Of a stretch of DNA of 27,857 bases, positions 4,804 through 26,590 are shown piece after piece; position 1 is the stretch's first letter; each line of letters starts with the position of its first letter. The notes beneath the pieces were generated by a model that saw nothing but the letters and a program-made list of their open reading frames with translations, was not told where the DNA came from and did not search any database. The stretch lies in the IMG/VR virus record IMGVR_UViG_2737471861_000021, one strand, 5' to 3'. Both the position numbers and the translations under genes were made by a program. Source of the DNA: a virus (Duplodnaviria > Heunggongvirae > Uroviricota > Caudoviricetes).

Positions 4804-4817
4804 CCGGAGTCATTGAA

Positions 4818-9698: not shown

Positions 9699-10303
9699 TG
9701 GCCTCTGTAGTAGAGATCTGTAATCGTGCGCTGTCCAATATTGGCAATAGCCGCAGCATTAACAGCCTGAAGGAAGCCAGCAAGGAAGCGGGGGAATGTT
9801 CGCTGCACTTTGAGGCCTGCCGTGATGCTGTGCTTTCTGATTTTGACTGGAACTTTGCTACCAAACGCGTGGCGCTTGCAGATACGAGCAATCCACCGCC
9901 TGACTGGGAATATGCGTACCAGTACCCGTCAGATTGTCTGCGCATTACTGAAATTATGCTTCCTGGTGTACGCAATCCAACAGCAGCAATGCGCGTTCAG
10001 TACGAAGTTGGTGCAGACACCGACGGAACAGGAAAGTTGATCTACACAGACCAGCCGCAGGCATGGCTCAAGTATGTCTCTCGCGTTTCAGATGTGAACA
10101 TGTTTGATGCCATTTTTATGGAGGCGTTGGCCTGGCGTCTTGCGGCAGCCATTAACATGGCGCTGACTGGGGATGCGGATCTCGGTACATTTGCTCTCAA
10201 TATGTACAATCGCGTGATTCTTAGTGCTGGCTCGCATAGCCAGAATGAATCACAGGAACCACAGCCACCGGTTGACGAGTTTACCATTGCGAGGTTGTCC
10301 TGA
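9698..10303 (+). CDS. Tail adaptor / gatekeeper protein (T7 gp11-like)
   Basis: About 201 aa; N-terminal 'EICNRALSNIGNSRSINSL' resembles the gp11 N-terminus (recollection). Size and position just before the large nozzle-like gene fit. Confidence 0.5.
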   Translation: MASVVEICNRALSNIGNSRSINSLKEASKEAGECSLHFEACRDAVLSDFDWNFATKRVALADTSNPPPDWEYAYQYPSDCLRITEIMLPGVRNPTAAMRVQYEVGADTDGTGKLIYTDQPQAWLKYVSRVSDVNMFDAIFMEALAWRLAAAINMALTGDADLGTFALNMYNRVILSAGSHSQNESQEPQPPVDEFTIARLS

Positions 10304-12774
10304 TGGCTATCAGTTGGATCCAGCCCAGCTTTGCCGGTGGTGAGATTGGACCGTCGTTGTACGGTCGTATCGACATGGCGAAGTACCAGGTGGCATTGCG
10401 CAAGTGCGATAACTTTATCGTGCGGCAGTATGGCGGCGTTGAGAATCGACCTGGTACGCGTTTTGTCGGTGCCGCCAAATACCCAAATCGGAAATGCCGC
10501 CTGATCCCGTTCCAGTTCTCGACGGTTCAGACCTACGCTCTGGAGTTCGGACACCAGTACATGCGCGTTATCAAAGATGGTGCGTTGGTGCTGAACAGCA
10601 GCAATGTTATTTATGAAATTGCCACACCATATACTGAAGCCGATCTGTTCCGAATTAAATTCACGCAAAGCGCCGACGTGCTTACGCTGGTTCATCCGGC
10701 ATACCCGCCGAAAGAGTTGCGCCGCTATGCGCATGACAACTGGCAACTGGTTGATGTGGTAACGAAGAACGGGCCATTTGAAGATATCAATATTGACGAG
10801 TCAGTGACGGTTTATGCCAGCGCCAGCACCGGGACAATTACGTTAACGGCAAGCGCCTCTATTTTTGGCGCGGAGCAAGTAGGCAAATTGTTCTATCTGG
10901 AACAGCCTGCAGTGGATTTAGCACCGGTATGGGAAACCAGTAAGAGTACGTCGATTGGCGATATTCGCCGTGCAGACAGTAACTACTATCGCGCCGTTAC
11001 AGCAGGCAAAACAGGTACTTTGCGCCCTTCGCATACAGAAGGCACATCATGGGATGGCTGGGGCGGATCCGGTGATGATGATACTGGCATTGAGTGGGAG
11101 TATCTGCACAGTGGTTTTGGCATTGCCCGTATCACTGCTGCAAATGGCACTACTGCAACTGCCGAGGTAATTTCCTATATCCCTTCGCAGGTCGTTGGCG
11201 AGGATAATGCCAGCTATAAATGGGCTAAATATGCTTGGAACAGTGTTAATGGCTATCCTGGCACTGTTGTTTATTATCAACAACGTCTTTACTTCGCCGC
11301 ATCGACTGCGTTCCCTCAGACTATCTGGGCCAGCCGTACTGGGGATTATAAGGATTTTGGCAAAAGCAATCCTACGCAGGATGATGACAGAATTATCTAC
11401 ACCTATGCCGGGCGTCAGGTTAATGAGATCCGCCACCTGATTGATGTTGGTTCGCTGGTGGCGCTGACTTCCGGAGGTGAGTACGTCATCACCGGCGACC
11501 AGAACAAAGTATTAACCCCATCATCATTTGCATTCAGCTCTCAGGGATCAAATGGCTCGAGCAATGTCCCACCAATTGCCGTGGCGAATATTGCTCTGTT
11601 CGTCCAGGAGAAAGGCAGTGTTGTCCGTGATCTGGCCTACTCATTCGATGTTGACGGTTATCAGGGGAACGACCTTACTATCCTTGCCAATCATCTTTTT
11701 CAGAAGCACAGAATTGTTGACTGGTGCTTCTCGATTGTCCCTTACTCTAGTGCCTTCTGCATTCGTGATGACGGTAAATTACTGGTGATGACCTATTTGC
11801 GTGATCAGCAGGTTTTTGCATGGGCACCACAATCCAGTACCGGAAAATATGAAAGCACATGCAGTATCAGCGAAGGAAATGAAGATGCGGTGTATTTCGT
11901 CGTTAACCGAACCGTTAACGGGCAAACAGTGAGATACATCGAGAGACTGTCCAGCCGTTTATTTACCAGCGATGAAGATGCTTTCTTTGTTGATTCTGGC
12001 CTTAGCTATGATGGAAGAAATACGTCTGACAGAACGATGATCATCACTGGTGGTTCTGGTGAATGGGATTACCGCGCGGAATATACAATCAGTGTTTCTG
12101 GTGGTGCGTACTTCACCAGTAGTGATGTCGGTGCGCAACTACAGTTCCCTTATACCGGAACTGTTCCTGATACTGGCGATGAAGTGTCAAAAGAATTACG
12201 TTGCGACATTATTTCTGTAACCAGCAATACCGCTGTAGTGGTTCGTGCTAACAGGAACGTCCCGCCATCCCTCAGGAATGTGGCCACCACGAACTGGCAG
12301 ATGGCGCGCCGGACATTTGGAGGCCTGTCTCATCTTGAAGGCCAGACCGTAAACATTCTCTCTGATGCGAACGTGGAACCACAGAAAGTGGTTTCCGGAG
12401 GTGCCGTCACGCTGGAATCTCCGGGGGCTGTAGTGCACATCGGCCTGCCAATAACTGCTGAATTCGAAACACTGGATATCAACATTAACGGACAGGAAAC
12501 GCTGCTGGACAAAAAACAGGTGATCCCCTCCGTTACTCTGGTTGTGAATGCCAGTCGCGGCATCTGGGCGACTACGCCCGGCGGTAAATGGTACGAATAT
12601 CCACAGCGTGAATTCGAGTTCTACGATGATCCTGTTGATGATGCTACCGGAAAAGTAGAAGTGAAACTGGACAGTAACTGGGGCAAAAACGGACGTGTAA
12701 AAATCCGTCAGCTTGATCCGTTGCCGCTGTCTGTTCTTGCCGTTATTCCTCGCCTTACTGTTGGGGGATTCTGA
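10303..12774 (+). CDS. Tail tubular protein B / nozzle (T7 gp12-like)
   Basis: 823-aa ORF after the adaptor gene; size and order match a podovirus nozzle protein. Confidence 0.55.
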   Translation: MAISWIQPSFAGGEIGPSLYGRIDMAKYQVALRKCDNFIVRQYGGVENRPGTRFVGAAKYPNRKCRLIPFQFSTVQTYALEFGHQYMRVIKDGALVLNSSNVIYEIATPYTEADLFRIKFTQSADVLTLVHPAYPPKELRRYAHDNWQLVDVVTKNGPFEDINIDESVTVYASASTGTITLTASASIFGAEQVGKLFYLEQPAVDLAPVWETSKSTSIGDIRRADSNYYRAVTAGKTGTLRPSHTEGTSWDGWGGSGDDDTGIEWEYLHSGFGIARITAANGTTATAEVISYIPSQVVGEDNASYKWAKYAWNSVNGYPGTVVYYQQRLYFAASTAFPQTIWASRTGDYKDFGKSNPTQDDDRIIYTYAGRQVNEIRHLIDVGSLVALTSGGEYVITGDQNKVLTPSSFAFSSQGSNGSSNVPPIAVANIALFVQEKGSVVRDLAYSFDVDGYQGNDLTILANHLFQKHRIVDWCFSIVPYSSAFCIRDDGKLLVMTYLRDQQVFAWAPQSSTGKYESTCSISEGNEDAVYFVVNRTVNGQTVRYIERLSSRLFTSDEDAFFVDSGLSYDGRNTSDRTMIITGGSGEWDYRAEYTISVSGGAYFTSSDVGAQLQFPYTGTVPDTGDEVSKELRCDIISVTSNTAVVVRANRNVPPSLRNVATTNWQMARRTFGGLSHLEGQTVNILSDANVEPQKVVSGGAVTLESPGAVVHIGLPITAEFETLDININGQETLLDKKQVIPSVTLVVNASRGIWATTPGGKWYEYPQREFEFYDDPVDDATGKVEVKLDSNWGKNGRVKIRQLDPLPLSVLAVIPRLTVGGF

Positions 12775-13238
12775 TGATCGATGTTCAAATTATTCCCGCA
12801 ACCGAAGAGCATCTTCAGATGATTTTGCCGGATGTTCGTCAGGCTGATATTGACGAACTGTATGCGGTATCGCTGATGACTACCGAAGATGCGCTGCGTG
12901 TTGGTCTTCGCACTGCGACTATGGCCTGGTCAGGGTTCGCGAACGGAGAACTGGTAACCATGTTTGGTGTATCTCCGGCGTCAATGATCGGTGGCAATGG
13001 TACGCCCTGGCTGGTAGGAACCAGCCGTATTGAAAAATATCAGAAGACATTTCTTCGCCACTGCCGCCCTGTATTGCAGCAGATGCTGGCAGTTTATCCG
13101 CGCCTGGAAAACTACGTCGACGAGCGAAACCATGTTGCCAAAGCATGGCTGCACTGGCTTGGATTCAGGCTTGAAGAAGCCGCGCCTTATGGTGCTCTTG
13201 GTCTTAATTTCCACAGATTTCACATGGAGAGAAAATAA
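12774..13238 (+). CDS. Virion-associated protein, function unknown
   Basis: 154-aa ORF translationally coupled (TGATG) to the nozzle gene. Confidence 0.45.
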   Translation: MIDVQIIPATEEHLQMILPDVRQADIDELYAVSLMTTEDALRVGLRTATMAWSGFANGELVTMFGVSPASMIGGNGTPWLVGTSRIEKYQKTFLRHCRPVLQQMLAVYPRLENYVDERNHVAKAWLHWLGFRLEEAAPYGALGLNFHRFHMERK

Positions 13239-13777
13239 TGTGTAACCCAGCCATCGCTTTGGTTGCCGTCACAGTGGCATCCACAGCCGCGTCAATGTAC
13301 AGCCAGAGCAAGCAGGCAAAATACCAGTCAGCCATAGCTGATCGGAATGCTGAAATTGCTGAAGCTCAGGCACAGGATTCAATCAATCGTGGGAATATTG
13401 AAGCGGATCAGCGTCGTCGTGAAATGCGTCAACGCTCAGGCACTGCGGCGGCCACTATGGGGGCTACCGGTGCGGAATTAAGTAGCGGAACAGCTCTTGA
13501 CGTTTTTGCTGATAATGCTCAGTTCGGCACTCTTGATGCGTTAACGACAGTGAATAATGCTCAGCGTGAGGCATATGGGTATCAGGTTCAGGGAATGAAT
13601 GCTCAGGCACAGGGGGCTGCTGCTCAGTCGGCTGCTAAATCATCGATGACCAGCACTTTGTTAACGGCACCACTAAAAGCATACGGTGCATACCAGATGG
13701 GCGGAGGAACGTGGAGCCCATTCTCTCAGAAGGCTGCGCCGATTTCTGCTGCTGTTGGCACTCCAACCGGTCGATAA
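13238..13777 (+). CDS. Internal virion protein (gp14-like, putative)
   Basis: 179 aa with a hydrophobic N-terminal segment (AIALVAVTVASTAAS) and an Ala/Gln-rich remainder. Sits at the head of the run of large core genes. Confidence 0.45.
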   Translation: MCNPAIALVAVTVASTAASMYSQSKQAKYQSAIADRNAEIAEAQAQDSINRGNIEADQRRREMRQRSGTAAATMGATGAELSSGTALDVFADNAQFGTLDALTTVNNAQREAYGYQVQGMNAQAQGAAAQSAAKSSMTSTLLTAPLKAYGAYQMGGGTWSPFSQKAAPISAAVGTPTGR

Positions 13778-13789: not shown

Positions 13790-16303
13790 ATGCCAGTTGT
13801 ACCAACAACATCGGGCCGTCAGGTTCAGAGCAGGGGGATTTCGACGCAGGGATTCTCATCGTTTCAGACGCCAAATGTCGGTGATGTACTTGGCGATGTT
13901 GCAGAGCAATATGCAGGTATTATTGCGCAGGCAAAACAGCGTGCGAATGTTGCTATGGCTCAGGATGCTTCTCTTAGCTTAAGCCAGATAAGCAGCGATC
14001 TGCTGAATAACCCTGAAACAGGTTTGCTTAACCTGAAAGGGAAAAATGCTATTGGAAAAGGTCAGGAGTATACGCAGCAGTTTGATGCCCAGGTCGAGCA
14101 ACTGGCTATGTCGCTGCCGGATGAACAGGCTCGTAATGCTTTCATGCAGCAGGCGCAGCAGCAGCGCATTCAGTTCACTACGCAGGCCGGGCGGCACGAG
14201 ATAGGGCAAATAAATGCCTACGAAGAAGGCCAGTTTCAGGCGACGCTGCTGAACAATGGTAAAAATGCCGCAGCATTGTATGGCGACAACGCCGCATACG
14301 TATTGGCTAATAAGCAAACTTTCCAGCAAATTGAGGATTACGGCATTGCGCATGGCTGGAGCGACGAGCAAATCCAGGCCAAGAAAATCGAGTTTAAAGA
14401 GAAGGTTGCTGATGCAGCATTGTCCCAGTGGTCGGCAAACAATGCGACCGCATTCATCCAAAGTAATGGCGAGTTAAGTGATACTGCTGCTGGAGCTCGC
14501 CGTGCTGTAGCAGATAGTGATTCTTCCGAGCGTGCCCGTGGCATACGCAACAATAACCCAGGAAATCTCGAATACAGCAAAACCAATCCGTGGGTAGGCC
14601 AGACCGGTGATGATGGTCGATTTGCTAAATTCGAAACACCTGAACACGGGATTCGTGCATTAGGGCGGAACCTGATGTCGTATCAGAGGCAGGGTATTGA
14701 TACCGTCAGCGAGATAATTAATCGCTGGGCACCGCCTACTGATAAAAATGACACTATGTCGTATATCAAAGCAGTGTGCGAACAACTTGGCGTTTCTGCT
14801 GATGAGCCTCTCGATGCATCTAATCCTGATACCCTGAAGGCGCTTTGTGCAGCCATTATCCATCATGAGAACGGTAGCCAGCCATACAGTGATCAGCAGT
14901 TAACTGCTGGTGTCAGTGCAGCACTTGGTTTATCAACAATTCCAACCAACACCAAACGCTATACCGGTAATGCAGCATTCGATGCGGCATCTCCTGAGGC
15001 GCAGGCAAGTTTTATGCGACAGGCGGATCAACTGCGTCGGCAGCAGCAGGCTGAATATAAAACGATGATTGACAGCCAAGTTCGCGATGCGACATCTGCG
15101 TATATGCGTGGCGTTGAATTTCCTAACCCACCTGGTGAGGCTGATTTTATTGCAGCTTATGGAGTCAGAGAAGGAAACCTGCGATATACCGAGTTCAGAA
15201 ATACGCAAATCGCCGGACAGTATATAGGCTCTTTCCGCAACATGCCGACAAGCAGCATTACAGCATATGTTGAGCAATTACGCCCGGATACTGGTGAGAC
15301 AGGGGAGGGGTATGCGGCACGCGCAGCTCTTTATGACAACGTTGTTTCGGCTGCAAATCAGGTGATAAAGCAGCGGCAATCGGATCCTGTGCAGTTCTCT
15401 CTTGCCGCCGGACAGGCAAAGCCTATCGACATGAGCAATAAGGATAACTTTGGACAGAGCGTTGCCTTGCGTGCCGCTCAGGTCAGTGACCTTGCTAAGT
15501 CATATGGCACTCCACTGACGTTCTTTTCCAAAGACGAGGCCAATCAGATCGGTGTTTTCTTTCGTGATGCTCCAGTTTCCCAACAGGCAGCATATCTCGA
15601 TACCATCAGGCAGAGCACTGGTGGTGGGCAGGTGTATATGTCAGCACTACAGCAGATCAGTGCCAACGCTCCATCTGCTGCCGTTGCCGGGATACTGATG
15701 GATAAGCCAGGTGGTATTTTGGCAGAAAAAAACTGGTTTAATCCGGATGTTTCCGTGTCTCCTGAAACCGCTGCGCAGACAATTCTTGCTGGCGCGGCGG
15801 CTCGTAAAGGTACTGATGATGCGAAAGGTATTCCGATGCCTAAAGATGCTGATCTTCGCCTTGAGTTTTCTGACATGGTGAAGGATGCATTTGCTGGTGA
15901 CGCTCAGGGGGCATCAATGGCATACGAGATCGCAAAGGATTATTACGCTGGTGTGATGGCGAAAAAAGGCGTGGTATCAGGCGAAATTGACAATGATGTC
16001 TGGAAACAGGCTGTTAACGTAGCTACAGGTGGCGTGCATGACTATAACGGAATGGGGAATGTCCTTTTGCCGTGGGGAATGTCTGCGGAGCAATTCGATA
16101 AGCAGGTTAATCAGGCTTGGAATGAACAAGTTGTCGGCTCCGGGATAAAAACACCGCCTGGTCAGTATGGTTTGCAAAGTTACGGCGATAGTCAGTACCT
16201 GGTGAAACTTGGTACTGGTTATCTGCTGAAAGATGATGGTTCTCCCGTTGTTCTTAATCTGACACAGAAGCGTCAGAGATTCTCCGGAGATATTCCGCAA
16301 TGA
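13790..16303 (+). CDS. Internal core / ejection protein
   Basis: 837-aa ORF in the core-protein block. Carries a conserved-looking 'GIRNNNPGNLEYSKTNPWVGQ...GRFAKFETPEHGIRA' segment of unassigned function. Confidence 0.6.
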   Translation: MPVVPTTSGRQVQSRGISTQGFSSFQTPNVGDVLGDVAEQYAGIIAQAKQRANVAMAQDASLSLSQISSDLLNNPETGLLNLKGKNAIGKGQEYTQQFDAQVEQLAMSLPDEQARNAFMQQAQQQRIQFTTQAGRHEIGQINAYEEGQFQATLLNNGKNAAALYGDNAAYVLANKQTFQQIEDYGIAHGWSDEQIQAKKIEFKEKVADAALSQWSANNATAFIQSNGELSDTAAGARRAVADSDSSERARGIRNNNPGNLEYSKTNPWVGQTGDDGRFAKFETPEHGIRALGRNLMSYQRQGIDTVSEIINRWAPPTDKNDTMSYIKAVCEQLGVSADEPLDASNPDTLKALCAAIIHHENGSQPYSDQQLTAGVSAALGLSTIPTNTKRYTGNAAFDAASPEAQASFMRQADQLRRQQQAEYKTMIDSQVRDATSAYMRGVEFPNPPGEADFIAAYGVREGNLRYTEFRNTQIAGQYIGSFRNMPTSSITAYVEQLRPDTGETGEGYAARAALYDNVVSAANQVIKQRQSDPVQFSLAAGQAKPIDMSNKDNFGQSVALRAAQVSDLAKSYGTPLTFFSKDEANQIGVFFRDAPVSQQAAYLDTIRQSTGGGQVYMSALQQISANAPSAAVAGILMDKPGGILAEKNWFNPDVSVSPETAAQTILAGAAARKGTDDAKGIPMPKDADLRLEFSDMVKDAFAGDAQGASMAYEIAKDYYAGVMAKKGVVSGEIDNDVWKQAVNVATGGVHDYNGMGNVLLPWGMSAEQFDKQVNQAWNEQVVGSGIKTPPGQYGLQSYGDSQYLVKLGTGYLLKDDGSPVVLNLTQKRQRFSGDIPQ

Positions 16304-18102
16304 GTTACTTTGGCCTTAATCCAGTAAACCAGAATCAGCAGCTTGACGAAGCAGCATCAAATCCAGCTGGCTTTAACAGCGATGTTGGTTTTTTCGACAA
16401 TGCTGTAGGAGCGGCATTGTCTGGTTTGTACTCCGGGCTGGTGGCAAAGCCAGATCAGTTGCTATGGGCAGGGATGGATAAAATCGTATCCCCGATTGCT
16501 CAGTTTGTTAACGAAAACACCTCGCTCAATGACACTTCAGTTTCATACATTGCCGAGCAGAGAAAACTAGCAGAGCAGCAGGTTAAGCGGCTGACGCCTG
16601 ATGCCGCGACAACCGGAACCGCCGGGCAGGTCCTTTATGGGTTGTTCGATATGGGAGGGCAGGCTGTTGTCGGTACAACGCTCGGTGGTCCGGTCGGAGG
16701 TGCTGCGGCGGTAACTTCTCTACAGGGTTTTTCTGAGTTTGAACGGCTGACAGCACAGGGTGTTGATTTCAGGACGGCGCAGGAAGCGGGATTAGTGCAG
16801 GGTATTACTGCTGGTGCCGGAACACTGATCCCTATGAGCCTCGGGTTACGTGCTGGTGGTGCGCTGGCGGAAGGTGTGGCGGCCCAGCTTGCGCGGACGG
16901 GTGAAAGTTCAGTGCGACGCGCCGCAGCAACAGCAGTACGTGCAACGCCAGATATTGCCTATGCCGCAGGTACAAATATTGCGTTCGGTATGGCACAGCG
17001 TGGGCTTACTGCAAAAACGCTTCGTGATGGTGGCTATAGCGAAATGGCTAACCAGTATGATGTGTTGGATCGACAGGCAATTGCTATTGATGCTGTTCTT
17101 GGGGTGGCGTTTGGTGGTGTCGGCAGATTTATGAACTCTCGCGGCGAGTCTACAAGCGCACCAAATTTTTCACCAGTTGATGTTGATGCTGCACTGGCGG
17201 CGAATGCCGCTCATCATGCTGAAATTGATATTGCGCCCGGCGTGCCGATCAACGTGCTTTCGCGCAATTCTCACATTCAGGCTCTGCGAAAAGCTATGTC
17301 TGATGTTAGCCAGGGGAGACCTGTAGACGTTGCCAGCATTGTTGAGTCTGCATCTTTCAGTGAAATTCCTGGGCGCAAGAGTCTGCTGTCTCAGGCAGTT
17401 AATGAGGCTCTGTCATCTGTAGATGATGGAGTAACGGCGCGCGCTATAGAAAATCGGTTGCTTGAAGAACAGGCCGCGCAGCTTTTGCCGCGTGGCGATA
17501 GACAGGTTTACCAGTCTGAAATCGCTAATAGCCAACGAATTATTGAAAATCTCACTGAACAGCGCGCACAAATTCTTGCAGAAGAGCCAACCGGTAGCGG
17601 TAAAGCTTTGTCTCGTGCTCGATCAGATAAACAGGTCAGACTTCGCGATATTGACCAACGAATCCGGCAGGCACAAGAGCGCCTGGAATTTTCCCGTAAC
17701 GCGTTGGCACCGCATGAGCCTGGCGGTCAGTTTTTTGAAGCTCGAGCAGAACTGGCACGACGACAGCAGGCAGAAAGTGAACTTAATGCTCAGGCTGTTT
17801 CATTCTATAAAACAGCAGAGGTCAGGACGCCAGACGAAGTAGCTCCTTTTGAGCCCGGTAAGATATTGCAACAGACAGAACAAAAAATGATGGCAGATCC
17901 GGCAGGAGATATTGATCTGCGTATAGCTGAAGACTCGCTGCTTGAATCACCTGACATGATAATCACCGTGCTGGATGATGATGGTAATCCACAATCGCGC
18001 AGTGCGCGTGAAGTACTGGATGAAGCGAACAGGGAAAGTGAGCAGGCAATACAGGATTCCAGCCTGTTTGATGTCGCTGTGGCGTGTTTCTTGAGGGGTT
18101 AA
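16300..18102 (+). CDS. Internal core / ejection protein
   Basis: 600-aa ORF with an ATGA overlap to the upstream gene; Gly/Ala-rich with a predicted hydrophobic stretch. Confidence 0.6.
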   Translation: MSYFGLNPVNQNQQLDEAASNPAGFNSDVGFFDNAVGAALSGLYSGLVAKPDQLLWAGMDKIVSPIAQFVNENTSLNDTSVSYIAEQRKLAEQQVKRLTPDAATTGTAGQVLYGLFDMGGQAVVGTTLGGPVGGAAAVTSLQGFSEFERLTAQGVDFRTAQEAGLVQGITAGAGTLIPMSLGLRAGGALAEGVAAQLARTGESSVRRAAATAVRATPDIAYAAGTNIAFGMAQRGLTAKTLRDGGYSEMANQYDVLDRQAIAIDAVLGVAFGGVGRFMNSRGESTSAPNFSPVDVDAALAANAAHHAEIDIAPGVPINVLSRNSHIQALRKAMSDVSQGRPVDVASIVESASFSEIPGRKSLLSQAVNEALSSVDDGVTARAIENRLLEEQAAQLLPRGDRQVYQSEIANSQRIIENLTEQRAQILAEEPTGSGKALSRARSDKQVRLRDIDQRIRQAQERLEFSRNALAPHEPGGQFFEARAELARRQQAESELNAQAVSFYKTAEVRTPDEVAPFEPGKILQQTEQKMMADPAGDIDLRIAEDSLLESPDMIITVLDDDGNPQSRSAREVLDEANRESEQAIQDSSLFDVAVACFLRG

Positions 18103-18107: not shown

Positions 18108-20582
18108 ATGAGACAGGAATGTATACAGGCGGTTCAGCAGGCGGCGCAGCGCATGTTAACGGCGCGAGAAATACAGAACATTGAAGACCGCATTTATCGA
18201 AATATGCGCTCCATTGCTCGTGATGACCCGATGTCGTGGCGACAACTTTCCGAATCAGATCGGCTATATCGAGCAGCACAATTGGCATCTGAAGAATTAC
18301 AGCGAGAAGCGGCATTAAAGAAACGTCGTGTGGCTCTCACTATAGCCGCGCGTCAGAGATTGGATAAATTTATCAATAGCTATCAAGGGGCTGATGGGAA
18401 ACTTGGCGCTCTTAACCGTACTATAGCTTTTAATGCAGACGGTAAATCTAATTTCCTCTCTGTTGAATCCAGAACAAAAGCCACCCGTGATTATGCATTG
18501 AGTCAATTGCAGGAGGCATTCGAAGCAGTTGATCCTCGCTTTTTTGGTCTGTTTGAAGATGAAGCGGGCGTACGTGACCTGGTATATGAAATGCGGGGGC
18601 AAAATACTGGCAATGCTAAAGCAAGAAAAGGTGCTAAGGCGTGGAGAGAAGTTACAGAGCTGCTGCGCCGCCGGTTTAATGATGCTGGTGGGGACATTGG
18701 CTATCTCGAAAACTGGGGGATCCCTCAACATCATTCTATGGAAAAGGTTGGGGCGGTATCAAAGGATAAGTGGGTTAACGATGTTATAGGTAAGCTGGAT
18801 CGCAAATATTATACCCGAGCCGATGGACAACTGATGAACGATGCCGAGTTGTCTGCATTTCTTGGAGAGGCTTATAACACGATCGCTACTGGTGGGCTGA
18901 ATAAGCTTACTGATACCGGAATGCGAATTTCCGGCGCACGTGCTAACCGTGGTAATGCATCACGACAGATACATTTCAAAGATGCTGATTCCTATCTCCA
19001 ATATCAACAACTTTATGGCGATCGCTCTCTATGGGAAATCATGGTCGGTCACCTGGAAGGTATCAGTAAAGATATTGCTCTGGTGGAAACATATGGTCCA
19101 AACCCCGATCATGTTTTCCGCTCCCTTCTTGATCAGGTTAAGGCAGAAACGGCAACAGCTAACCCGAGTAAAACCGGTAAAGTCGAGCGGCTGGCGAACA
19201 ACACAGAGAATCTGTACAACTTTATTTCCGGAAAGACACAGCCTGTAGCGAATCCGCACATCGCGCGATGGTCTGACAATATCCGCAACTGGCTGGTTGC
19301 CAGCAGACTCGGATCCGCGTTGCTGTCATCGTTCTCTGATCTTGGAACCATGTATCTGTCTGCGAAGGTGACCAACCTTCCGATGAACCAGTTATTCCGC
19401 AACCAGCTTGAAGCTATGGACCCAACGAACCGTACTGAGCTTGCGCGGGCGCGCCGCGCTGGTCTGGCGATGGAATCTCTACTTGGCAGCGTTAACCGCT
19501 GGGCGATGGATAATATGGGGCCGTCTGTGTCTCGTTGGGCTGCAACGGCGGTAATGCGTGCCAGTGGGCTTACAGCATGGTCAGATGCGCACAAGCGCGC
19601 CTATGGCGTAACCATGATGGGAAGCCTGGGAGAAGTAGTGTCACGGACACCAGACCTTCGTAGCCTCGATGACTCTGATTTTCGTATCCTGAAAAGCAAA
19701 GGGATTACTGACACAGACTGGAGCGTATGGAAGTTGGCGCAACAGGAGGACTGGGGGAACGGTAATAATACGATGCTGACACCGGAAAGCATTATGCGTA
19801 TCCCTGATTCAGCAGTTAAACATCTTGGTGAGCCTGAACGCGTGAAATTTGAGGCAATGCGTAAACTGCTCGGTGCCGTAACTGAAGAAGTTGATATGGC
19901 TGTTATTACACCGGGAGCACGTGAGCAACTGATAACCGGTTCTGGTATTCAGCGTGGAACATGGAAAGGTGAATTAACGAGAAGTGTTTTCCTGTTTAAA
20001 TCGTTCCCTATCTCGGTTGTTATGCGTCACTGGTCACGCGCTATGGGTATGCCGTCTGCTGGTGGGCGTGCGGCATATATTGCGACGTTTATTGCCAGTA
20101 CGACCATTCTTGGCGCTTTGTCGCAGCAACTTAACGACCTTGCGTCTGGTCGTAATCCTCGAGAGATGACAGGAGAAGATGCCGCAAAATTCTGGCTTGG
20201 TGCTCTACTGAAAGGTGGTGGCCTTGGCCTTTACGGTGATTTTTTGTTGTCAGATCACACGAGGTACGGAAGCGGTGCGCTGGCATCAATGCTTGGTCCG
20301 GTAGCCGGTCTGGTTGATGACGTAGTGAAGATAGCTCAGGGCATACCACTAAATGCTGTGGAAGGGAAGAACGAGCAGACTGGTGGTGATCTGGTGAAAC
20401 TTGGGAAAGGGCTGATGCCAGGTGCGAATCTCTGGTACTTGAAGGCAGCTCTTGATCACATGATCTTTAACCAGATGCAGGAGTATTTTTCACCAGGCTA
20501 TTTGCGTAAAATGGAGCAACGTTCGAAGAAAGAGTTTAACCAGACATACTGGTGGCGACCACAGGATGTCACTCCGCAATAA
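18108..20582 (+). CDS. Large internal core / ejection protein
   Basis: 824-aa ORF, last large gene of the core block, with hydrophobic segments near the C-terminus. Confidence 0.6.
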   Translation: MRQECIQAVQQAAQRMLTAREIQNIEDRIYRNMRSIARDDPMSWRQLSESDRLYRAAQLASEELQREAALKKRRVALTIAARQRLDKFINSYQGADGKLGALNRTIAFNADGKSNFLSVESRTKATRDYALSQLQEAFEAVDPRFFGLFEDEAGVRDLVYEMRGQNTGNAKARKGAKAWREVTELLRRRFNDAGGDIGYLENWGIPQHHSMEKVGAVSKDKWVNDVIGKLDRKYYTRADGQLMNDAELSAFLGEAYNTIATGGLNKLTDTGMRISGARANRGNASRQIHFKDADSYLQYQQLYGDRSLWEIMVGHLEGISKDIALVETYGPNPDHVFRSLLDQVKAETATANPSKTGKVERLANNTENLYNFISGKTQPVANPHIARWSDNIRNWLVASRLGSALLSSFSDLGTMYLSAKVTNLPMNQLFRNQLEAMDPTNRTELARARRAGLAMESLLGSVNRWAMDNMGPSVSRWAATAVMRASGLTAWSDAHKRAYGVTMMGSLGEVVSRTPDLRSLDDSDFRILKSKGITDTDWSVWKLAQQEDWGNGNNTMLTPESIMRIPDSAVKHLGEPERVKFEAMRKLLGAVTEEVDMAVITPGAREQLITGSGIQRGTWKGELTRSVFLFKSFPISVVMRHWSRAMGMPSAGGRAAYIATFIASTTILGALSQQLNDLASGRNPREMTGEDAAKFWLGALLKGGGLGLYGDFLLSDHTRYGSGALASMLGPVAGLVDDVVKIAQGIPLNAVEGKNEQTGGDLVKLGKGLMPGANLWYLKAALDHMIFNQMQEYFSPGYLRKMEQRSKKEFNQTYWWRPQDVTPQ

Positions 20583-21033: not shown

Positions 21034-21054
21034 CTTATCTTCTCCATGCAATAA

Positions 21055-21070
21055 CTGTATATTTATACAG
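21055..21070 (-). promoter_or_regulatory. LexA (SOS) box
   Basis: CTGTATATTTATACAG is a perfect CTGT-N8-ACAG with an AT-rich spacer. The extended 20-mer AACTGTATATTTATACAGTA closely matches the E. coli consensus TACTGTATATATATACAGTA. It sits just upstream of the minus-strand small gene. Confidence 0.7.
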
Positions 21071-21228
21071 TAGCAAATAATTTGTTTGCTATCCAGCACG
21101 TTTTGCAAATTACCCGAAAGGTAATATCTATTCATATTCACAGTCTTTCTATCCATATGTGGTTTTTCAGGTAATAGAATAACCAGATATGCGGCGCAAC
21201 GGGTGCTGCGACTATCTGGAGATTTAAC

Positions 21229-23418
21229 ATGACGGTCTCAACCGAAGTTGACCACAACGAATACACAGGCAATGGCGTTACGACTTCATTCCCTTATACC
21301 TTTAGGGTTTTCAATGAATCTGATCTGGTAGTGCAGGTGGTTGACCTTGACGAAAATATCGCTGTACTGGCTCTTGATACTGATTACACTGTCACTGGGG
21401 CTGGAGGATATAACGGCGGTAATGTAATTCTGTCGAAGGCGTTAGCTAACGGTTACCAGATTTCTATATCACGAGAGCTCCCGGTTACGCAGGAAACTGA
21501 TTTGCGTAATCAGGGTAAGTTCTTTGCAGAAGTGCATGAGGATGCTTTTGATAAGCTAACGATGCTGATCCAGCAGGTTCGAAGTTGGTTCAGTTTGGCT
21601 CTGCGTAAGCCATCATTTGTTGCTAATTATTATGATGCCTTGAACAATTACATCCGCAATTTACGTGATCCTTCAAGACCTCAAGATGCAGCCACTAAAA
21701 ATTATGTTGATACACAGCTCAGTACTAGCCTCAGGTGCACATTGCGCGTTCAGGAGCAGATTCCGATACTTCCTGACGCTGCCTCCCGTGAAAACAAGAT
21801 GCTTGCTTTCGATAACAATGGTAACCCCATTGTTGTACTTCCTCCATCTGGCTCTGCTTCTGATGTATTGATCGAATTAGCTAAACCAGCAGGCGCAGGG
21901 ATGATTGGTACCAAATCAGGAGATACTGTTCAAGATACGTTGGATGAACTCAATCATAAATCAGGTTATGATAATTCTGATATTTCTTTGTATGGATATA
22001 TATATGGTAGTGGAGAGGACGCTAAGCCTTATGTTCTTGCAGCCATAGGTAAAACAGGGGTTGCGCATATCAGCGGTGATACCACATTATCAAGATTTGA
22101 CTGGCCCCAAGGTGCAAGGATTACCGGAAAAGCAACGATCACATACACAAGGCTACCAAACGTTCCATGTGAACTTGATAGTGAAATACCTGTAAACCAT
22201 TCACTAATGAAAGCTGTATATGTTCATGAGGTATTTGATATCTGCGATATGTTACAAATAAAAACAGCAGGATTTAATACTTTAATTCATTATGGTCAGG
22301 CATGGCGTGATGGTGGAGACATGGAAAAAGCATGTAACGCAGCGGAAGCAATAGGATTGCGTTTGATTTTGGGCGGGCCAATATACGGACAGACAGATAC
22401 GCCATCTTCAGAACTGGACGATAGAGATTGTGTTATAGGATATTATCTATTTGATGAACCTCAAAACCATTCTATATCGGCTTCTGCCCAGGCTACTAGA
22501 ATAAACGCGTTCAAGGCTTTCACTAAAAAGTCGCTATGTATAGCTGATAATGGCATCTTTGCTTTTGATTCACCTACTATTCCGTCAGGGTACGATGGTG
22601 TTGGCTACGATTACATATTCATTGACGCTTACGCATACGCTAATCGAGATTTCGCCACGAATAAAAGAGCGGCAGTGCTATGTTGGGCGGAAATGAAATA
22701 CAAATCCCCAAATTCTAAGCTGATCCCTTGCTTGGGTATGTTTAGCGAACCTTCTGAGTTTTCAGATAAGTCAAAGCAAATATCTTTTGCAAGGAAATTC
22801 TTTGGGATGGGGCCCGGTGATTATGCCGCCTTTGCTTGGGAGAGCAATCTTATTATTGGCACATTCAAAGACATAACTAATGATTCTGACTTTTATAATG
22901 AAGTTTTAAGTTATAATTGCATAACAGAACAAAAACCATACAAAACAGATGTTTATGTGTTTTACACAGATAGAATGGGTGGGGCTATGCAGTTGTACAA
23001 TGACAAGTACAGTTCTGCCGATGTCACACCATTCCAGACTATCAATGCTGGGAGCGCACAAGGTGAGCGTAACACCACATTCAAAAAGGGTGGTATCGCG
23101 GCAAGAAACACCGGAGGCGTGTTTGCTACGAGGATGAAGAACCACGGGTACGTGGCTGTTGAGCTGTATTATTTTAACGGTGCAGATACCGCAAATACTA
23201 CAGCATCAATAACAACTTGCATTGACGATTTTTACACAAACACCCCGCAGCTTACGTTCACGCTCTCAACTACACAAAACGCCTGGATAAACTCTGTGGA
23301 AACAACACCTAATCTCGGTGTTGGTATAAAGATTATCCCAAGCCAATCTTACCAATATAGGTGGAAATTCATATATGGTGGCATAGTTGATTGCTCATGG
23401 AGAGGTGATTCATTTTAA
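21229..23418 (+). CDS. Tailspike / receptor-binding protein
   Basis: 729-aa ORF with a GGAGA RBS. N-terminus 'MTVSTEVDHNEYTGNGVTTSFPYTFRVF...' matches what I recall of the epsilon15-family tailspike head-binding domain. The distal two-thirds is AT-rich and divergent. Confidence 0.8.
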   Translation: MTVSTEVDHNEYTGNGVTTSFPYTFRVFNESDLVVQVVDLDENIAVLALDTDYTVTGAGGYNGGNVILSKALANGYQISISRELPVTQETDLRNQGKFFAEVHEDAFDKLTMLIQQVRSWFSLALRKPSFVANYYDALNNYIRNLRDPSRPQDAATKNYVDTQLSTSLRCTLRVQEQIPILPDAASRENKMLAFDNNGNPIVVLPPSGSASDVLIELAKPAGAGMIGTKSGDTVQDTLDELNHKSGYDNSDISLYGYIYGSGEDAKPYVLAAIGKTGVAHISGDTTLSRFDWPQGARITGKATITYTRLPNVPCELDSEIPVNHSLMKAVYVHEVFDICDMLQIKTAGFNTLIHYGQAWRDGGDMEKACNAAEAIGLRLILGGPIYGQTDTPSSELDDRDCVIGYYLFDEPQNHSISASAQATRINAFKAFTKKSLCIADNGIFAFDSPTIPSGYDGVGYDYIFIDAYAYANRDFATNKRAAVLCWAEMKYKSPNSKLIPCLGMFSEPSEFSDKSKQISFARKFFGMGPGDYAAFAWESNLIIGTFKDITNDSDFYNEVLSYNCITEQKPYKTDVYVFYTDRMGGAMQLYNDKYSSADVTPFQTINAGSAQGERNTTFKKGGIAARNTGGVFATRMKNHGYVAVELYYFNGADTANTTASITTCIDDFYTNTPQLTFTLSTTQNAWINSVETTPNLGVGIKIIPSQSYQYRWKFIYGGIVDCSWRGDSF

Positions 23419-23466: not shown

Positions 23467-24585
23467 TTATAATTTTATTCCTTTTCCGTACTTAATTAGT
23501 GGTCGTTCAATAAAAGAAAATGTAAGTGATGATAAAACACACAGTGCTACGAATAGAATTGTTATCATTGGGAGTGAGATATTTAGGTTGTTAATATCAT
23601 ATTTATCTTTAATAAAGGCAAATGAAGGATAGAAAACAACCCCTTGTAAAAGGTAAATGCTGTAAGAGCACTCCCCCAAACGAGTAAATCCCTTTATATT
23701 CAATATACCAAACAAGCTTGCGCCTTTAGCCACGCAAAGCATAAACACTGTGACTATTATCCACGGTCTAGTGCTGTTAAGTGATGGATTTAACAGTACG
23801 AATATAGTCACAGATGCTAACAGCATGAGGTCAGATGTTTTTTTTGATAATGAAATTCTGCATGATAACTCCTTAGATAGGATACCACAGGCGAAAGCAG
23901 AATAATACCAATATGATGCATCTGTAAATGATGGTAGAAAATACATACAAACAAACATAATACCAATTGAAGCTTCAAGTGGCTTGGAACGTAAAAAATA
24001 AATGATTGGTAAAGAGAAGTAGAATCCCCATTCCCACTTTATTGTCCATGTTACACCAGACAACACCAATACAGAATTATTGAATCCATTTATATTAGGT
24101 TTTATGTCAAATACACTTGCGTCAAACCATTTCAACAAATCATCCAAACTAATATTGTTGTGGTTTGTTGACATTAAAATAATATATGATACAGCAATGA
24201 ATGATGAAAGATATGTCATCGGTACGATTCTAAAAAATCTATCTTTATATAAGTTTATCCAGTCAATATTTTTTGATTTACGAATCTTTCCCCAGAAAAG
24301 AAAAGCTGTAATTGAAAAGAAAATCGCTACGCCAAATTTCCCTATTGAATAAATAAAATCAGAATGAGTAGTCCATTTATTTATTGTAAAATAATTAATA
24401 AAATAGTCTGAGTGATGGAACACAACCATGGATGCAAGAATATATCTTAGACCATCAAGATTCCGCTCCCTTGAGTAATCATGATCTTTCCCGTCTATGT
24501 AAGAAAAAACATTAGAGCTAAATAAAAGACCACATATAAAAATTGAACATCCAACCCACAAGTATATGATAACAGAGTCAGTCAT
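23467..24585 (-). CDS. Integral-membrane acyltransferase (acyltransferase family 3; O-antigen acetyltransferase-like)
   Basis: 372-aa polytopic membrane protein with 'LDGLRYILASMVVFHH' near the N-terminus and 'SYSIYLLQGVVFYP...FIERP' near the C-terminus, both typical of Acyltransferase_3 (Oac/OafA-like). Strongly AT-rich relative to the rest of the prophage. Confidence 0.75.
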   Translation of the reverse strand: MTDSVIIYLWVGCSIFICGLLFSSNVFSYIDGKDHDYSRERNLDGLRYILASMVVFHHSDYFINYFTINKWTTHSDFIYSIGKFGVAIFFSITAFLFWGKIRKSKNIDWINLYKDRFFRIVPMTYLSSFIAVSYIILMSTNHNNISLDDLLKWFDASVFDIKPNINGFNNSVLVLSGVTWTIKWEWGFYFSLPIIYFLRSKPLEASIGIMFVCMYFLPSFTDASYWYYSAFACGILSKELSCRISLSKKTSDLMLLASVTIFVLLNPSLNSTRPWIIVTVFMLCVAKGASLFGILNIKGFTRLGECSYSIYLLQGVVFYPSFAFIKDKYDINNLNISLPMITILFVALCVLSSLTFSFIERPLIKYGKGIKL

Positions 24586-24777
24586 TTTTAGTTTCCATAT
24601 TATATTCCAGTATTAGCTGCATGCAGAACCATTTTCCTATGGACGGCAGCATTGTATCACCCAGGGGGTAATTTCGGTAGGGGTATTCTTAGGTAATACA
24701 TATCCATATATGGTTTATTGTGTATGATGTACTCACCAACTAAGGGGGTTCTTTATGCACATTAAACGGTGGTCATA

Positions 24778-25182
24778 ATGGCGCAAATGTTAACCACGGA
24801 AACTATAAATCAGGGTCTTAGCATGAGCGCGCTGATGTCTGTGTTCGCTGGAGTACCGCCAGAGGTGGCTTTAGGAGCTTTGGCTGGGGCGGTAATTTTT
24901 GTTACCTCAGCGGTAGAGTATCACATCCGTCGCCGGGTGCTCCTGTCGATGCTCAGCTTTCTTTGCGGCCTTCTCTTTTACAAACCAGCAGCATCAATTC
25001 TTATCGGCATAGCCAGCCTGATCCCTACCATCACGCAGGACTCTTTTGAAAAAGGGATTGTTTTCTCTGCAGGCGCATTCGTGTCAGCAATTGTCGCTGT
25101 GCGTATTGGTATATGGCTCTATCACCGTTCCGATAATCCACGCGAGTTAATTCCGGGGAGAAAAGACGATGGTAACGTATGA
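24778..25182 (+). CDS. Holin-like membrane protein (class I-like, 3-4 TM)
   Basis: ATG at 24778 (track ORF 24769..25182). Several hydrophobic segments and a charged C-terminus; first gene of the lysis cassette. Confidence 0.5.
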   Translation: MAQMLTTETINQGLSMSALMSVFAGVPPEVALGALAGAVIFVTSAVEYHIRRRVLLSMLSFLCGLLFYKPAASILIGIASLIPTITQDSFEKGIVFSAGAFVSAIVAVRIGIWLYHRSDNPRELIPGRKDDGNV

Positions 25183-25477
25183 GTTTTTTTTGCTTATCAC
25201 CAATGCAGTTATTTGCACTGGCATAGCAATTCGCGTTGTCACATTCCGGCGTAACGGCTCTCAACACCGAAGGTGGGGAGGATGGCTTGCTTATTTCCTG
25301 ATTGTTGCTGCGGCCAGTATTCCTGTTCGTGTCGCCTATGCAATCTGGTTACGTACGCCAATGGCTGTGGATTTATCTGAGGTCATTATCAACGCTGTCA
25401 TGCTAACTGCGGTTATTAAAACGCGCGGTAACGTCGTTCAAATTTTCAAAGTATCGAGGTCTAAACATGGAGATTAA
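25169..25477 (+). CDS. Second small membrane protein of the lysis cassette (holin or antiholin-like)
   Basis: 102 aa with about three TM segments; overlaps the upstream gene and precedes the endolysin. Confidence 0.45.
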
Positions 25478-26096
25478 ACAATTCCAGCGAGCTGCTGGTA
25501 TCAGTGAGTCACTGGCCGCACGCTGGTTCTCGCATATAACTTCTGCGATGAAAGAGTTTGGTATCAGCAAACCAGAAGATCAGGCTATGTTTATTGCTCA
25601 GGTCGGGCATGAGTCTGGAGGCTTCACCCGGTTGCAGGAGAATTTCAACTACAGCGTCAGCGGACTGGCTAACTTTGTTCGGGCTGGGCGTCTCACTCAG
25701 GGACAGGCCAACGCATTGGGGCGACGCGCAGGCGAACCACCATTGCCACTTGAGCGCCAGCGCGCGATCGCAAATCTGGTATACAGCAAACGCATGGGGA
25801 ACAATGCCCCTGGTGATGGCTGGAATTACCGAGGGCGCGGACTTATCCAGATTACCGGTTTGAATAACTATCGTGATTGCGGAAACGGTCTGAAGGTTGA
25901 CCTGCTGGAGAGCCCTGAACTGCTGGCGCAGGACGAATATGCGGCTCGTAGCGCGGCGTGGTTCTTCGCCAGCAAAGGATGCATGAAGTATACCGGCGAT
26001 ATTGCACGTGTAACTCTGATTATCAATGGTGGCCGGAACGGCATCGACGACCGGCGAGCGCGGTACATCACTGCCAGTAAGGTGCTGGCGGTATGA
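25467..26096 (+). CDS. Endolysin, glycoside hydrolase family 19 (chitinase-like) type
   Basis: 209 aa. '[12 protein letters not shown]', '[12 protein letters not shown]' and '[12 protein letters not shown]' are GH19 endolysin signatures; from memory it is very close to the Salmonella phage SPN1S endolysin. Confidence 0.9.
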
Positions 26097-26590
26097 TCTG
26101 GGCATTCGTAAAAGCATACTGGAAACAGTTGCTTATCGTGGCAGTGCTTGCTGTTCTGGTCATATCAGGAGTGGTTGCCTGGAATATACACGGCAGTCGC
26201 CAGTACGATGCCGGGTATGCTCAGGCGAAGGAAGATCAGAAACAGGCTGATGATAAGTTAAGGTCACAGCGTGAGCAGGAGAAAACACAAATTGAACGTG
26301 AAGCACAATCCCGTATCGATGCGGCGCGTGCTGATGCTGAGTATGCTAATTCCGCTGCTGACAGCATGCGCGCCGAGCTTGACAAAACCAGGCGGCTCGC
26401 CGAACACTATACCGGATCTTTCCCCCCTGGCACGCCAGCCAGCAAGGTCATCGGTGTGCTCGCCGACATGCTTGAAGAAAGCAACCGAGTTTACAACGCA
26501 ACAGCAGCTGAGGCTGAAAAGTATCGTATCGCAGGGGAATTCTGCGAGCAGCAATACGATTCACTGAAGAAGCAAAAATCGTGGCACTGA
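26093..26590 (+). CDS. Rz: i-spanin (Rz-like)
   Basis: 165 aa with an N-terminal TM helix ([18 protein letters not shown]) and a charged coiled-coil-like periplasmic domain; directly follows the endolysin with an ATGA overlap. Confidence 0.7.
26319..26567 (+). CDS. Rz1: o-spanin lipoprotein (Rz1-like), embedded in the +1 frame of Rz
   Basis: Internal ATG of track ORF 26271..26567. Signal peptide [17 protein letters not shown] with an LTAC lipobox, followed by a Pro-rich mature region. Lies entirely within Rz in a different frame. Confidence 0.6.
   Translation: MRRVLMLSMLIPLLTACAPSLTKPGGSPNTIPDLSPLARQPARSSVCSPTCLKKATEFTTQQQLRLKSIVSQGNSASSNTIH

Follow-up and report, generated by a model that had tools for sequence, protein, structure and literature searches.

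A muralytic module is needed to cross peptidoglycan and may sit on the protein in either the gp15 or the gp16 position; in phage T7, gp16 carries an SLT-type (GH23) domain with the residue E37 (PMC8954989). A different type of enzyme has been described in Hafnia phage Enc34, whose ORF39 lyses Gram-negative cells with a permeabilised outer membrane, and whose ORF39deltaC form degrades peptidoglycan in a turbidity assay (PMC8943055). Glu131, Trp79, and Tyr95 of Enc34 were described by the authors as a catalytic signature common to GH73 and GH23 enzymes, and the enzyme was inferred to be a beta-N-acetylglucosaminidase by analogy to GH73, while HPLC analysis of the Enc34 relative M4lys suggested both glucosaminidase and endopeptidase activity (PMC8943055). 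NO16 GP11, another Enc34-like protein, was found in virions, and its homologue, Jorvik Stl, has been reported to degrade peptidoglycan (PMC13552765).

Genome context

The window, the whole stretch of 27,857 nucleotides that was analysed, belongs to a Uetakevirus (epsilon15/phiV10-type) podophage of E. coli, and it is 94-98% identical to phiV10-type phages at the nucleotide level. The gene of interest stands among genes for virion proteins, with a lysis cassette further downstream:

10303..12774, + strand: tail nozzle (T7 gp12-type); phmmer against PDB 8ck1_A "Tail Nozzle", E 2.3e-216; PHROG 376 "tail protein"
12774..13238, + strand: gp13-like internal virion protein; PHROG 308 "internal virion protein", E 9e-63; weak, sub-threshold match to Pfam T7 Gp13
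13238..13777, + strand: gp14-like internal virion (ejection) protein; Pfam PF24072 T7_gp14, E 8e-8, 32.8 bits (cutoff 27); PHROG 418 "internal virion protein"
13790..16303, + strand: epsilon15-gp15-type virion protein of 837 aa that contains the putative muralytic domain (ORF listing; stop codon included)
16300..18102, + strand: epsilon15 gp16-like protein, 600 aa (ORF; PHROG 1145, function unknown)
18108..20582, + strand: 824-aa protein resembling epsilon15 gp17 (PHROG 684 "virion structural protein")
24769..26590, + strand: lysis cassette coding for two holins, an endolysin of family GH19 (25467..26096), and a spanin-like DUF2514 protein (Pfam Phage_holin_8, Phage_holin_3_7, Glyco_hydro_19, and DUF2514; PHROG 181 "endolysin")

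A tail-tubular-A-type protein is also encoded in the window (PHROG 394; epsilon15 gp11 note). The genes for tail tubular proteins A and B, gp13, gp14, and the large internal proteins follow one another in the order of an ejection set, and the order in epsilon15, where the orthologue of the gp13-like protein is annotated as a GNAT-like acetyltransferase, is identical. PDB relatives were found for neither the 600-aa gp16-like protein nor the 824-aa gp17-like protein. The entries for "Epsilon 15" in Table 1 of PMC8954989 (gp11, 229 aa; gp12, 499 aa; gp13, 708 aa) do not match the epsilon15 record and were not used.

The 837-aa protein and its modules

The open reading frame at 13790..16303 (+ strand) has an ATG start codon and codes for 837 aa, as originally predicted; a Shine-Dalgarno sequence (AAGGGG) lies upstream, and the stop codon overlaps the start of the next frame at 16300 through the sequence ATGA, the two genes being translationally coupled. 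The protein is a full-length match to PHROG 992 and is 59% identical overall to epsilon15 gp15 (AAO06078.1). An identical protein is contained in E. coli genomes (P0121, which represents 4,311 member sequences), and a 935-aa form, common in E. coli, has an insert of about 104 aa placed exactly between residues 242 and 249, for which no credible family or structure match was found. An exhaustive representative search with the full-length protein returned 12,776 matches at E<=1e-3, with many representatives homologous over about residues 400-826; two additional word-indexed searches for homologues yielded little beyond near-identical copies from E. coli, and the diversity described here comes from the exhaustive search. 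Neither an export signal nor a hydrophobic transmembrane-like segment was found in the protein, and the membrane-anchored architecture of an Enc34-style endolysin is therefore inapplicable. The protein is divided into the following parts:

13790..13912, + strand: predicted disordered N-terminal tail, residues 1-41 (pLDDT <50 at 1-4 and 7-41 in the full-length model)
13913..14485, + strand: N-terminal module of long alpha-helices, residues 42-232
14486..14533, + strand: flexible linker or module joint, residues 233-248 (pLDDT <50 at 234-245; insert site of the 935-aa variant)
14534..14929, + strand: Enc34-type (PHA02564) lysozyme-like domain, putative peptidoglycan glycosidase, residues 249-380
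14972..15709, + strand: helical middle module, residues 395-640, the first part of a conserved "C-module" (AF2 pLDDT about 90)
15710..16264, + strand: alpha/beta C-terminal domain, residues 641-825, mosaic and variable (AF2 secondary structure)

The full-length AlphaFold model has a mean pLDDT of 84.9 and is low only at residues 1-41, residues 234-245, and the extreme C-terminus, and the Shannon entropy per forty residues is 3.4-4.1 bits along the entire protein. The earlier description of everything outside the motif block as low-complexity was therefore wrong, and this part of the protein is confidently folded. The motif block is the most conserved stretch in the comparison with epsilon15 gp15, to which the identity is 85% over residues 249-392 versus 24% in the C-terminal 300 aa (24-25% over 536-837). 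The C-terminal residues 400-837, however, are 88% identical to those of SPN1S-type phages, and the protein is therefore mosaic. PDB-directed searches returned no solved relative for the flanking modules, including residues 395-640; similarity to T7-type gp15 was found for neither the flanking modules nor the protein as a whole, and the flanking modules showed none to any solved ejection protein.

An Enc34-type lysozyme-like domain

Residues about 249-380 form a lysozyme-like domain of the Enc34 type (PHA02564), the family that the original prediction had left unnamed. The motif block on which that prediction was built (RGIRNNNPGN...) occurs verbatim at residues 250-298 (14537..14683, + strand; exact string match) and makes up the N-terminal part of the domain. 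The block is conserved far beyond chance; residues G251, N254-N256, P257, G258, N259, G287, and R289 show no or almost no variation, and homologues of the block number more than 2,200 in one database. The domain matches the Enc34 endolysin (PDB 7q47), the structurally solved founding member of the family, with a phmmer E of 2.7e-17 as a single sequence and 1.7e-42 as a family profile, and it matches residues 3-146 of Gp29 in PDB 9vvp with E 3.9e-38 and 7e-53, respectively; both matches are confined to the motif block. Gp29 was identified through tblastn as Kayfunavirus gp16, or "internal virion protein D" (e.g., ZCEC02 XXO11343.1), and the module of Kayfunavirus gp16 aligns to the domain with an hhalign probability of 99.9%; a literature search on PDB 9VVP, 8CK1, or Kayfunavirus cryo-EM returned nothing relevant. 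The domain is folded in the all-helical manner that distinguishes the Enc34 catalytic domain, and no match to an SLT/transglycosylase sequence family was found for it.

The whole protein has zero matches in Pfam and NCBIfam, whereas the family profile run against solved structures gave the matches to 7q47 and 9vvp. The empty result is no argument against the domain, because the Enc34-type family has no model in either collection, which also explains why existing records label the protein as "hypothetical", "head protein", or "virion protein".

Alignment to 7q47, with the codons checked, locates the equivalents of the Enc34 signature residues:

14726..14728, + strand: W313, equivalent of Enc34 Trp79, the substrate-positioning aromatic residue
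14762..14764, + strand: Y325, equivalent of Enc34 Tyr95
14867..14869, + strand: E360, equivalent of Enc34 Glu131, the proposed catalytic residue, in a HENG motif

Position 313 is aromatic in 65/65 and 32/32 aligned homologues, position 325 is Tyr in 64/64 and 30/30 non-gap sequences, and position 360 is Glu in 64/64 and 32/32 aligned homologues. The Glu131/Tyr95/Trp79 signature (Enc34 numbering) is intact in the domain, and the combination of Glu and Tyr/aromatic residues is retained in homologues as distant as 23% identity. From its sequence, the domain is predicted to be catalytically active, and the bond that it cleaves would, by analogy, be glucosaminidase-like. The GenBank record of epsilon15 gp15 (AAO06078.1) reads "putative lytic transglycosylase", based on a remote HHpred match to SltB; this annotation denotes a different enzyme class from that suggested by the closest structural relative.

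Proposed role in entry

The 837-aa protein is probably an active Enc34-type glycosidase that is packaged in the virion, delivered through the tail to the periplasm, and used to cut murein for entry rather than for lysis. Entry is indicated by the position of the gene within an operon that runs from the nozzle through the gp13-like and gp14-like proteins to the gp16-like and gp17-like proteins, and by the presence of a holin/GH19-endolysin/spanin cassette of the phage's own; the 837-aa protein is neither encoded together with a holin and spanin nor the sole muralytic enzyme for lysis. It is also indicated by relatives with the same C-module that hold a GH108 or SLT domain in the same slot. The C-module of Ralstonia phage RpY1 gp044 is homologous to residues 409-829 of the protein in the window (27% identity over 420 aa, E 2e-36), and the synteny is the same, but the slot is occupied by GH108 (residues 257-332) and not by an Enc34-type domain; metagenomic relatives with a homologous C-module have GH108 or SLT at about the same position. 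Together with the matches to 7q47 and 9vvp and the intact signature, the synteny, the separate lysis cassette, and the other glycosidase domains found in this slot support the earlier suggestion of a globular enzymatic or peptidoglycan-interacting domain that serves genome delivery. ORF14 of Pseudomonas phage Ab31, a "putative structural lysozyme", contains neither an Enc34-type nor a Pfam domain and was not counted as support.

In the proposed mechanism, the 837-aa protein would be packaged in the virion of the epsilon15/phiV10-type podophage and, at infection, would pass through the tail into the periplasm. There, with Glu360 acting as catalytic acid and the glycan strand held in position by Tyr325 and Trp313, the domain would make a local hole in the murein. 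The helical modules of the protein, together with the gp14-, gp16-, and gp17-like neighbours, may build a trans-envelope DNA conduit, which would reach the inner membrane through this hole. As the flanking modules resemble neither T7 gp15 nor any solved ejection protein, it is their position that suggests a tunnel-forming role.

The status of the protein as an ejected core protein is provisional. The placement as an "internal core protein" in the original prediction can be drawn from gene order, whereas a review assigns the internal core of epsilon15 to gp17; one published list of epsilon15 injection-device proteins, which cites Guichard 2013, seems to group gp15 with the tail hub, and secondary sources place gp15 in the injection apparatus. 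The protein may accordingly be a fixed part of the tail hub or central tube, a place that was put forward for gp15 in earlier studies of epsilon15, with the domain acting in situ from the tail tip, and the lack of both a transmembrane segment and similarity to T7 gp15 would fit such a location. This explanation is nevertheless rather unlikely, since the hub is already accounted for by the T7-type nozzle (8ck1, E 2e-216) and the tail-tubular-A-type protein (PHROG 394), the gene comes after those of the gp13- and gp14-like internal virion proteins in a T7-like order, and the internal ejection protein gp16 of Kayfunavirus bears the same enzyme module. A place in the tail hub would alter the location of the 837-aa protein, not its enzymatic function.

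The domain sits mid-protein between large structural modules, where substrate access is possibly restricted, and it may be catalytically dead or purely peptidoglycan-binding, anchoring the injection apparatus to the murein without cutting it. Pseudoenzymes normally lose their catalytic residues, whereas here the Glu proposed for catalysis does not vary and the Tyr/aromatic signature persists in homologues down to 23% identity; moreover, the same slot is filled by bona fide glycosidases (GH108 and SLT) in homologues, and the Enc34 domain is lytic on its own, which makes a dead or solely binding domain very unlikely, if slightly less so than a lytic function of the protein. That the protein is a second endolysin acting in lysis from within, as might be read from its closest characterised relatives (the endolysins Enc34 ORF39 and Chi-like "lysis protein A") and from the "endolysin" label of the matched PHROGs 1044 and 873, is hardly credible in view of the complete dedicated cassette with a GH19 endolysin 9 kb downstream, the fusion of the domain inside an 837-aa protein of the virion-structure operon, and the absence of an export signal or transmembrane segment.

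Significance

The kind of domain and the orthologue were already known, and the finding is an ordinary one that leaves current understanding unchanged; it is well established that podophage internal proteins carry muralytic modules and that these are shuffled from one protein to another. The practical value lies in annotation, as the protein occurs in thousands of copies in E. coli prophages and also in phiV10/SPN1S-type phages. Naming the domain and the residues W313, Y325, and E360 provides a defined virion-associated peptidoglycan hydrolase, of predicted activity, for O157-targeting phages. The proposed catalytic residue E360 (E360Q) offers a clean way to probe how muralytic activity contributes to podophage entry, and the domain, at about 130 aa, is a compact candidate lysin.

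More speculatively, the epsilon15-gp15 family could be a conserved "carrier" scaffold with a single enzymatic slot in which recombination exchanges domains of at least three glycosidase lineages (Enc34-type, GH108, and SLT), a possibility that we hold only tentatively. Such a scaffold may comprise the N-terminal helical module, the flexible joint, the helical module, and the alpha/beta C-module, which are without solved relatives, and may accept inserts, as in the 935-aa variant. If true, it would be a natural system in which to ask whether Enc34-type domains are glucosaminidases, transglycosylases, or enzymes of dual specificity. If the scaffold forms a periplasmic tunnel, it would represent an ejection architecture that is evolutionarily unrelated to T7 gp15 and in which hydrolase domains would be arranged as a ring on the wall of the tunnel.

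Comparison with known systems

The orthologue in epsilon15 is gp15 (AAO06078.1), with which the gene order is shared, and orthologues are also present in phiV10, SPN1S, ZX5, and E. coli prophages. ORF39 of Hafnia phage Enc34 (7q47) is a 26-kDa protein of the lysis cassette with a C-terminal two-helix transmembrane anchor; in contrast, the domain described here lies within a virion protein of 837 aa that lacks a transmembrane segment, and the endolysin of the phage is a GH19 enzyme. Gp29 of 9vvp, a gp16 "DNA ejectosome component", shares the Enc34-type module with the 837-aa protein, but the module lies at the extreme N-terminus of Kayfunavirus gp16 (residues 2-133 of 1295 aa) and at residues 249-380 here, and the 837-aa protein, which stands in the gp15 position, is unrelated to Kayfunavirus gp16 outside the module. 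The N-terminal lytic transglycosylase of T7 gp16 and the lysozyme activity of gp35 in K1E/K1-5 follow the same logic, in which a muralytic module is carried on an internal or ejection protein.

The Conserved Block as an Enc34-Type Domain

The gene under study, an ATG-started ORF of 837 codons at 13790..16303 (+) in the ORF listing, is preceded by an AAGGGG ribosome-binding site, and its stop shares an ATGA junction with the start of the next ORF. The conserved block singled out in the original prediction is present in this ORF, found letter for letter by exact string match at residues 250–298 (nt 14537–14683). The domain spanning residues 249–380 is a member of the Enc34-type family (named PHA02564 in PMC8943055) with an intact active-site signature, because the equivalents of E360, Y325, and W313 are conserved in the aligned homologues.

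Pfam, one of the checks proposed at the outset, returned no match for the 837-aa protein, nor did NCBIfam; PHROGs place the entire protein in phrog_992, and residues ~157–496 or 245–393 in families labeled "endolysin" or "tail injection transglycosylase". In the PDB sequence search, matches are confined to the block: residues 249–398 align with residues 3–146 of "Gp29", chain L in 9vvp (E 3.9e-38), and residues 249–367 align with the Enc34 endolysin catalytic domain from a Hafnia phage, 7q47 (E 2.7e-17). The proposed structure prediction and Foldseek search were run: an AlphaFold model of residues 230–403, built from a 65-sequence alignment (pLDDT 85.7, core >90), retrieved 7q47 as its sole match (E 3e-11, TM 0.68–0.74).

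The isolated Enc34 domain lyses permeabilized Gram-negative cells, its fold is permuted and only distantly related to the lysozyme alpha-lobe, and its catalytic residue Glu131 has the conserved partners Trp79 and Tyr95, common to GH73/GH23 enzymes (PMC8943055). In the HMMER alignment, Glu131, Trp79, and Tyr95 correspond to E360 (HHENGS), W313 (NRWAPP), and Y325 (DTMSY), a register confirmed by the constant offset of +1 between PDB SEQRES and PMC8943055 numbering at all three residues.

Conservation of the active-site residues in 65 domain homologues and in 32 full-length members (23–50% identical)
E360: Glu in 64/64 non-gap of 65 domain homologues; Glu in 32/32 full-length members
Y325: Tyr in 64/64 domain homologues; Tyr in 30/30 full-length members
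W313: aromatic in 65/65 domain homologues; aromatic in 32/32 full-length members

Architecture of the Remaining Protein

The rest of the protein, originally described as low-complexity, is not so: entropy is 3.4–4.1 bits per 40-residue window (Shannon-type complexity) throughout, and the full-length AlphaFold model is confident (mean pLDDT 84.9, pTM 0.58), with the following divisions.

Residues 1–41: disordered tail
Residues 42–232: long-helix module
Residues 234–245: disordered linker
Residues 249–380: enzymatic domain
Residues 395–640: helical module
Residues 641–825: alpha/beta domain

The linker at residues 234–245 is a recombination joint. The 935-aa variant, the commonest E. coli prophage form, is 97–98% identical to the window protein on both sides of a ~104-aa insert (NPYGGEPKSTKGMVVQGNINLFNRPSVKNEDGTIST...; residues 243–346 of the variant P0164), which lies between window residues 242 and 249 (nt ~14515–14534), precisely at the disordered linker preceding the enzymatic domain. 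Searches of the insert against Pfam and the PDB gave no credible match, and PHROGs gave just a weak match of unknown function. By sequence comparison, the C-terminal ~300 residues are mosaic: residues 536–837 (15395–16303) are ~24% identical to epsilon15 gp15, compared with 69–85% for residues 1–535, and residues 400–837 share 88–90% identity with the proteins of SPN1S, SPC32H, and Tyrion. In the profile search against the PDB, the enzymatic domain alone was matched; because the non-enzymatic modules have no detectable solved relative, "gp15-like" denotes position and not demonstrated homology, and hhalign to T7-type gp15 gave 0.3% probability. No hydrophobic TM-like segment was found in the protein.

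An Interchangeable Enzymatic Slot

An exhaustive representative search yielded 12,776 relatives, of which 324 reached E<=1e-30; many relatives of 830–950 aa align end to end, and others match the C-terminal module only (query ~400–826). Among nine C-module-only relatives scanned with Pfam, GH108 (3/9) or SLT (4/9) lies upstream of the shared module. Ralstonia phage RpY1 gp044, an 879-aa "minor structural protein" whose gene neighborhood matches that of the 837-aa gene, has a C-terminal module homologous to window residues 409–829 (27% identity, E 2e-36), and carries GH108 (residues 257–332) where the window protein has the Enc34-type domain. That one position of a conserved scaffold holds three glycosidase lineages, unrelated to each other or related only very remotely, argues for peptidoglycan cleavage as the job of this slot.

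Pseudomonas phage Ab31 ORF14 (3185–5284), a "putative structural lysozyme" in the same syntenic position, shares part of the helical middle module; scans of it found neither an Enc34-type nor a Pfam domain, and either it holds a fourth muralytic module that goes unrecognized or it was annotated without good grounds.

Genome Context: Entry Versus Lysis

The window belongs to a podophage of the Uetakevirus type (epsilon15/phiV10-like). The 837-aa gene has 94–98% nucleotide identity to Escherichia phages PH444, ZX5, phiV10, and phiv142-3, and ~75% to part of epsilon15; an identical 837-aa protein stands for 4,311 protein sequences found in E. coli genomes. Terminase, portal, protease, major capsid protein, tail-tubular-A-like protein, and nozzle are followed by gp13-like and gp14-like proteins, the 837-aa gene, and two large virion proteins (600 and 824 aa), then by the tailspike, an opposite-strand O-antigen acyltransferase, holins, endolysin, and spanin.

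10303–12774: tail nozzle, 823 aa; near full-length homologue of 8ck1_A "Tail Nozzle" (E 2e-216)
12774–13238: gp13-position protein, 154 aa; PHROG 308 "internal virion protein"; Pfam T7 Gp13 weak (13.6 bits, sub-threshold)
20776–21156 (-): ORF, 125 aa, between structural operon and tailspike; PHROG 450 (function unknown), weak match to an anti-repressor family
21229..23418: tailspike; N-terminal ~240 aa match many PHROG tail-fiber families, the remainder without such matches
23467..24585, opposite strand: Acyl_transf_3 O-antigen acyltransferase, inside the low-G+C region

The 837-aa gene lies within the virion-structure operon, after the nozzle, gp13-like, and gp14-like genes, the last being above the Pfam T7_gp14 threshold and a PHROG "internal virion protein". 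A separate lysis cassette comprises Phage_holin_8, Phage_holin_3_7, a GH19 endolysin (25467..26096), and a DUF2514 spanin-like protein. We read the enzymatic domain as serving entry, not lysis. The Enc34-type module, which occurs in 815 phage records, is mobile as well as widespread: it is the endolysin of Enc34/Chi-like siphophages and "P5" in tailless NO16/PM2-like phages and some microviruses, and is also part of D3112-like Pseudomonas phages and one tape-measure protein. A tblastn search identified 9vvp Gp29 as the 1295-aa gp16 of a Kayfunavirus (labeled "DNA ejectosome component / internal virion protein D"), a podophage ejection protein with the module at its N-terminus. In NO16, the Enc34-like GP11 was found in virions and a role at entry was proposed for it, and its homologue Jorvik Stl degrades peptidoglycan (PMC13552765).

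Several further features of the region were observed. The nozzle is also a weaker homologue of 9efk_M. The epsilon15 orthologue of the gp13-position protein is annotated in its record as a GNAT-fold acetyltransferase by HHpred, a puzzling fold for an internal virion protein. G+C is 0.37–0.42 at 21000–25000 versus ~0.50 elsewhere, and this region resembles a module for host range and serotype conversion that has been exchanged horizontally. The 167-kb and 89-kb records of E. coli O157 typing phages 7 and 8 (KP869105.1 and KP869106.1) hold only the last 385 nt of the 837-aa gene, at the record end and with 97.7% identity, which suggests an assembly join or phiV10-like phage contamination; record PP350014 ("phage PH444", 114.9 kb) likewise includes this ~39-kb phage type.

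Proposed Mechanism and Virion Location

The original prediction of a globular enzymatic or peptidoglycan-interacting domain for genome delivery is supported by the Enc34-type match to 7q47 and 9vvp, the intact signature, and the separate endolysin. The best explanation, and a highly probable one, is a virion-borne Enc34-type glycosidase that would cut murein locally during genome delivery, with E360 as the predicted general acid. The protein, which is probably packaged in the virion and ejected, may use its flanking modules to contribute to, or dock onto, a trans-envelope conduit with the gp14-, gp16-, and gp17-like proteins.

As to the bond that may be cleaved, the Enc34 authors infer beta-N-acetylglucosaminidase activity from GH73 analogy (PMC8943055). 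HPLC of M4lys suggested additional endopeptidase activity. The label that GenBank gives epsilon15 gp15, "putative lytic transglycosylase", goes back to a remote HHpred match to SltB; neither Pfam on the 837-aa protein nor Foldseek on the model of residues 230–403 found an SLT-family match to back it.

In the virion, the protein may lie in the internal core or in the tail hub. Epsilon15 gp15 appears paired with the tail hub in the injection-device protein list of one paper, and the passage of a review on the epsilon15 core assigns that core to gp17; however, clear nozzle and adaptor homologues in the window now account for the tail hub.

Comparison with Known Systems

It is established that internal proteins of podophages can carry muralytic modules and that these move between gp15- and gp16-position proteins (PMC8954989). 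Table 1 of that review credits "Epsilon 15" with ejection proteins of 229 aa (gp11), 499 aa (gp12), and 708 aa (gp13), in disagreement with the epsilon15 GenBank sizes (~201, ~825, and ~154 aa); the tabulated sizes resemble a P22-like phage instead, so that the review leaves the epsilon15 gp15 hydrolase domain uncovered. This kind of protein is already known, as is the Enc34-type family with its characterized structure (7q47), and the orthologue epsilon15 gp15 already carried an annotation as putatively muralytic. What is added is the exact family of a Uetakevirus protein called hypothetical, head, or virion protein in most records, its predicted catalytic residues and its domain boundaries, and a carrier scaffold seen exchanging Enc34-type, GH108, and SLT modules.
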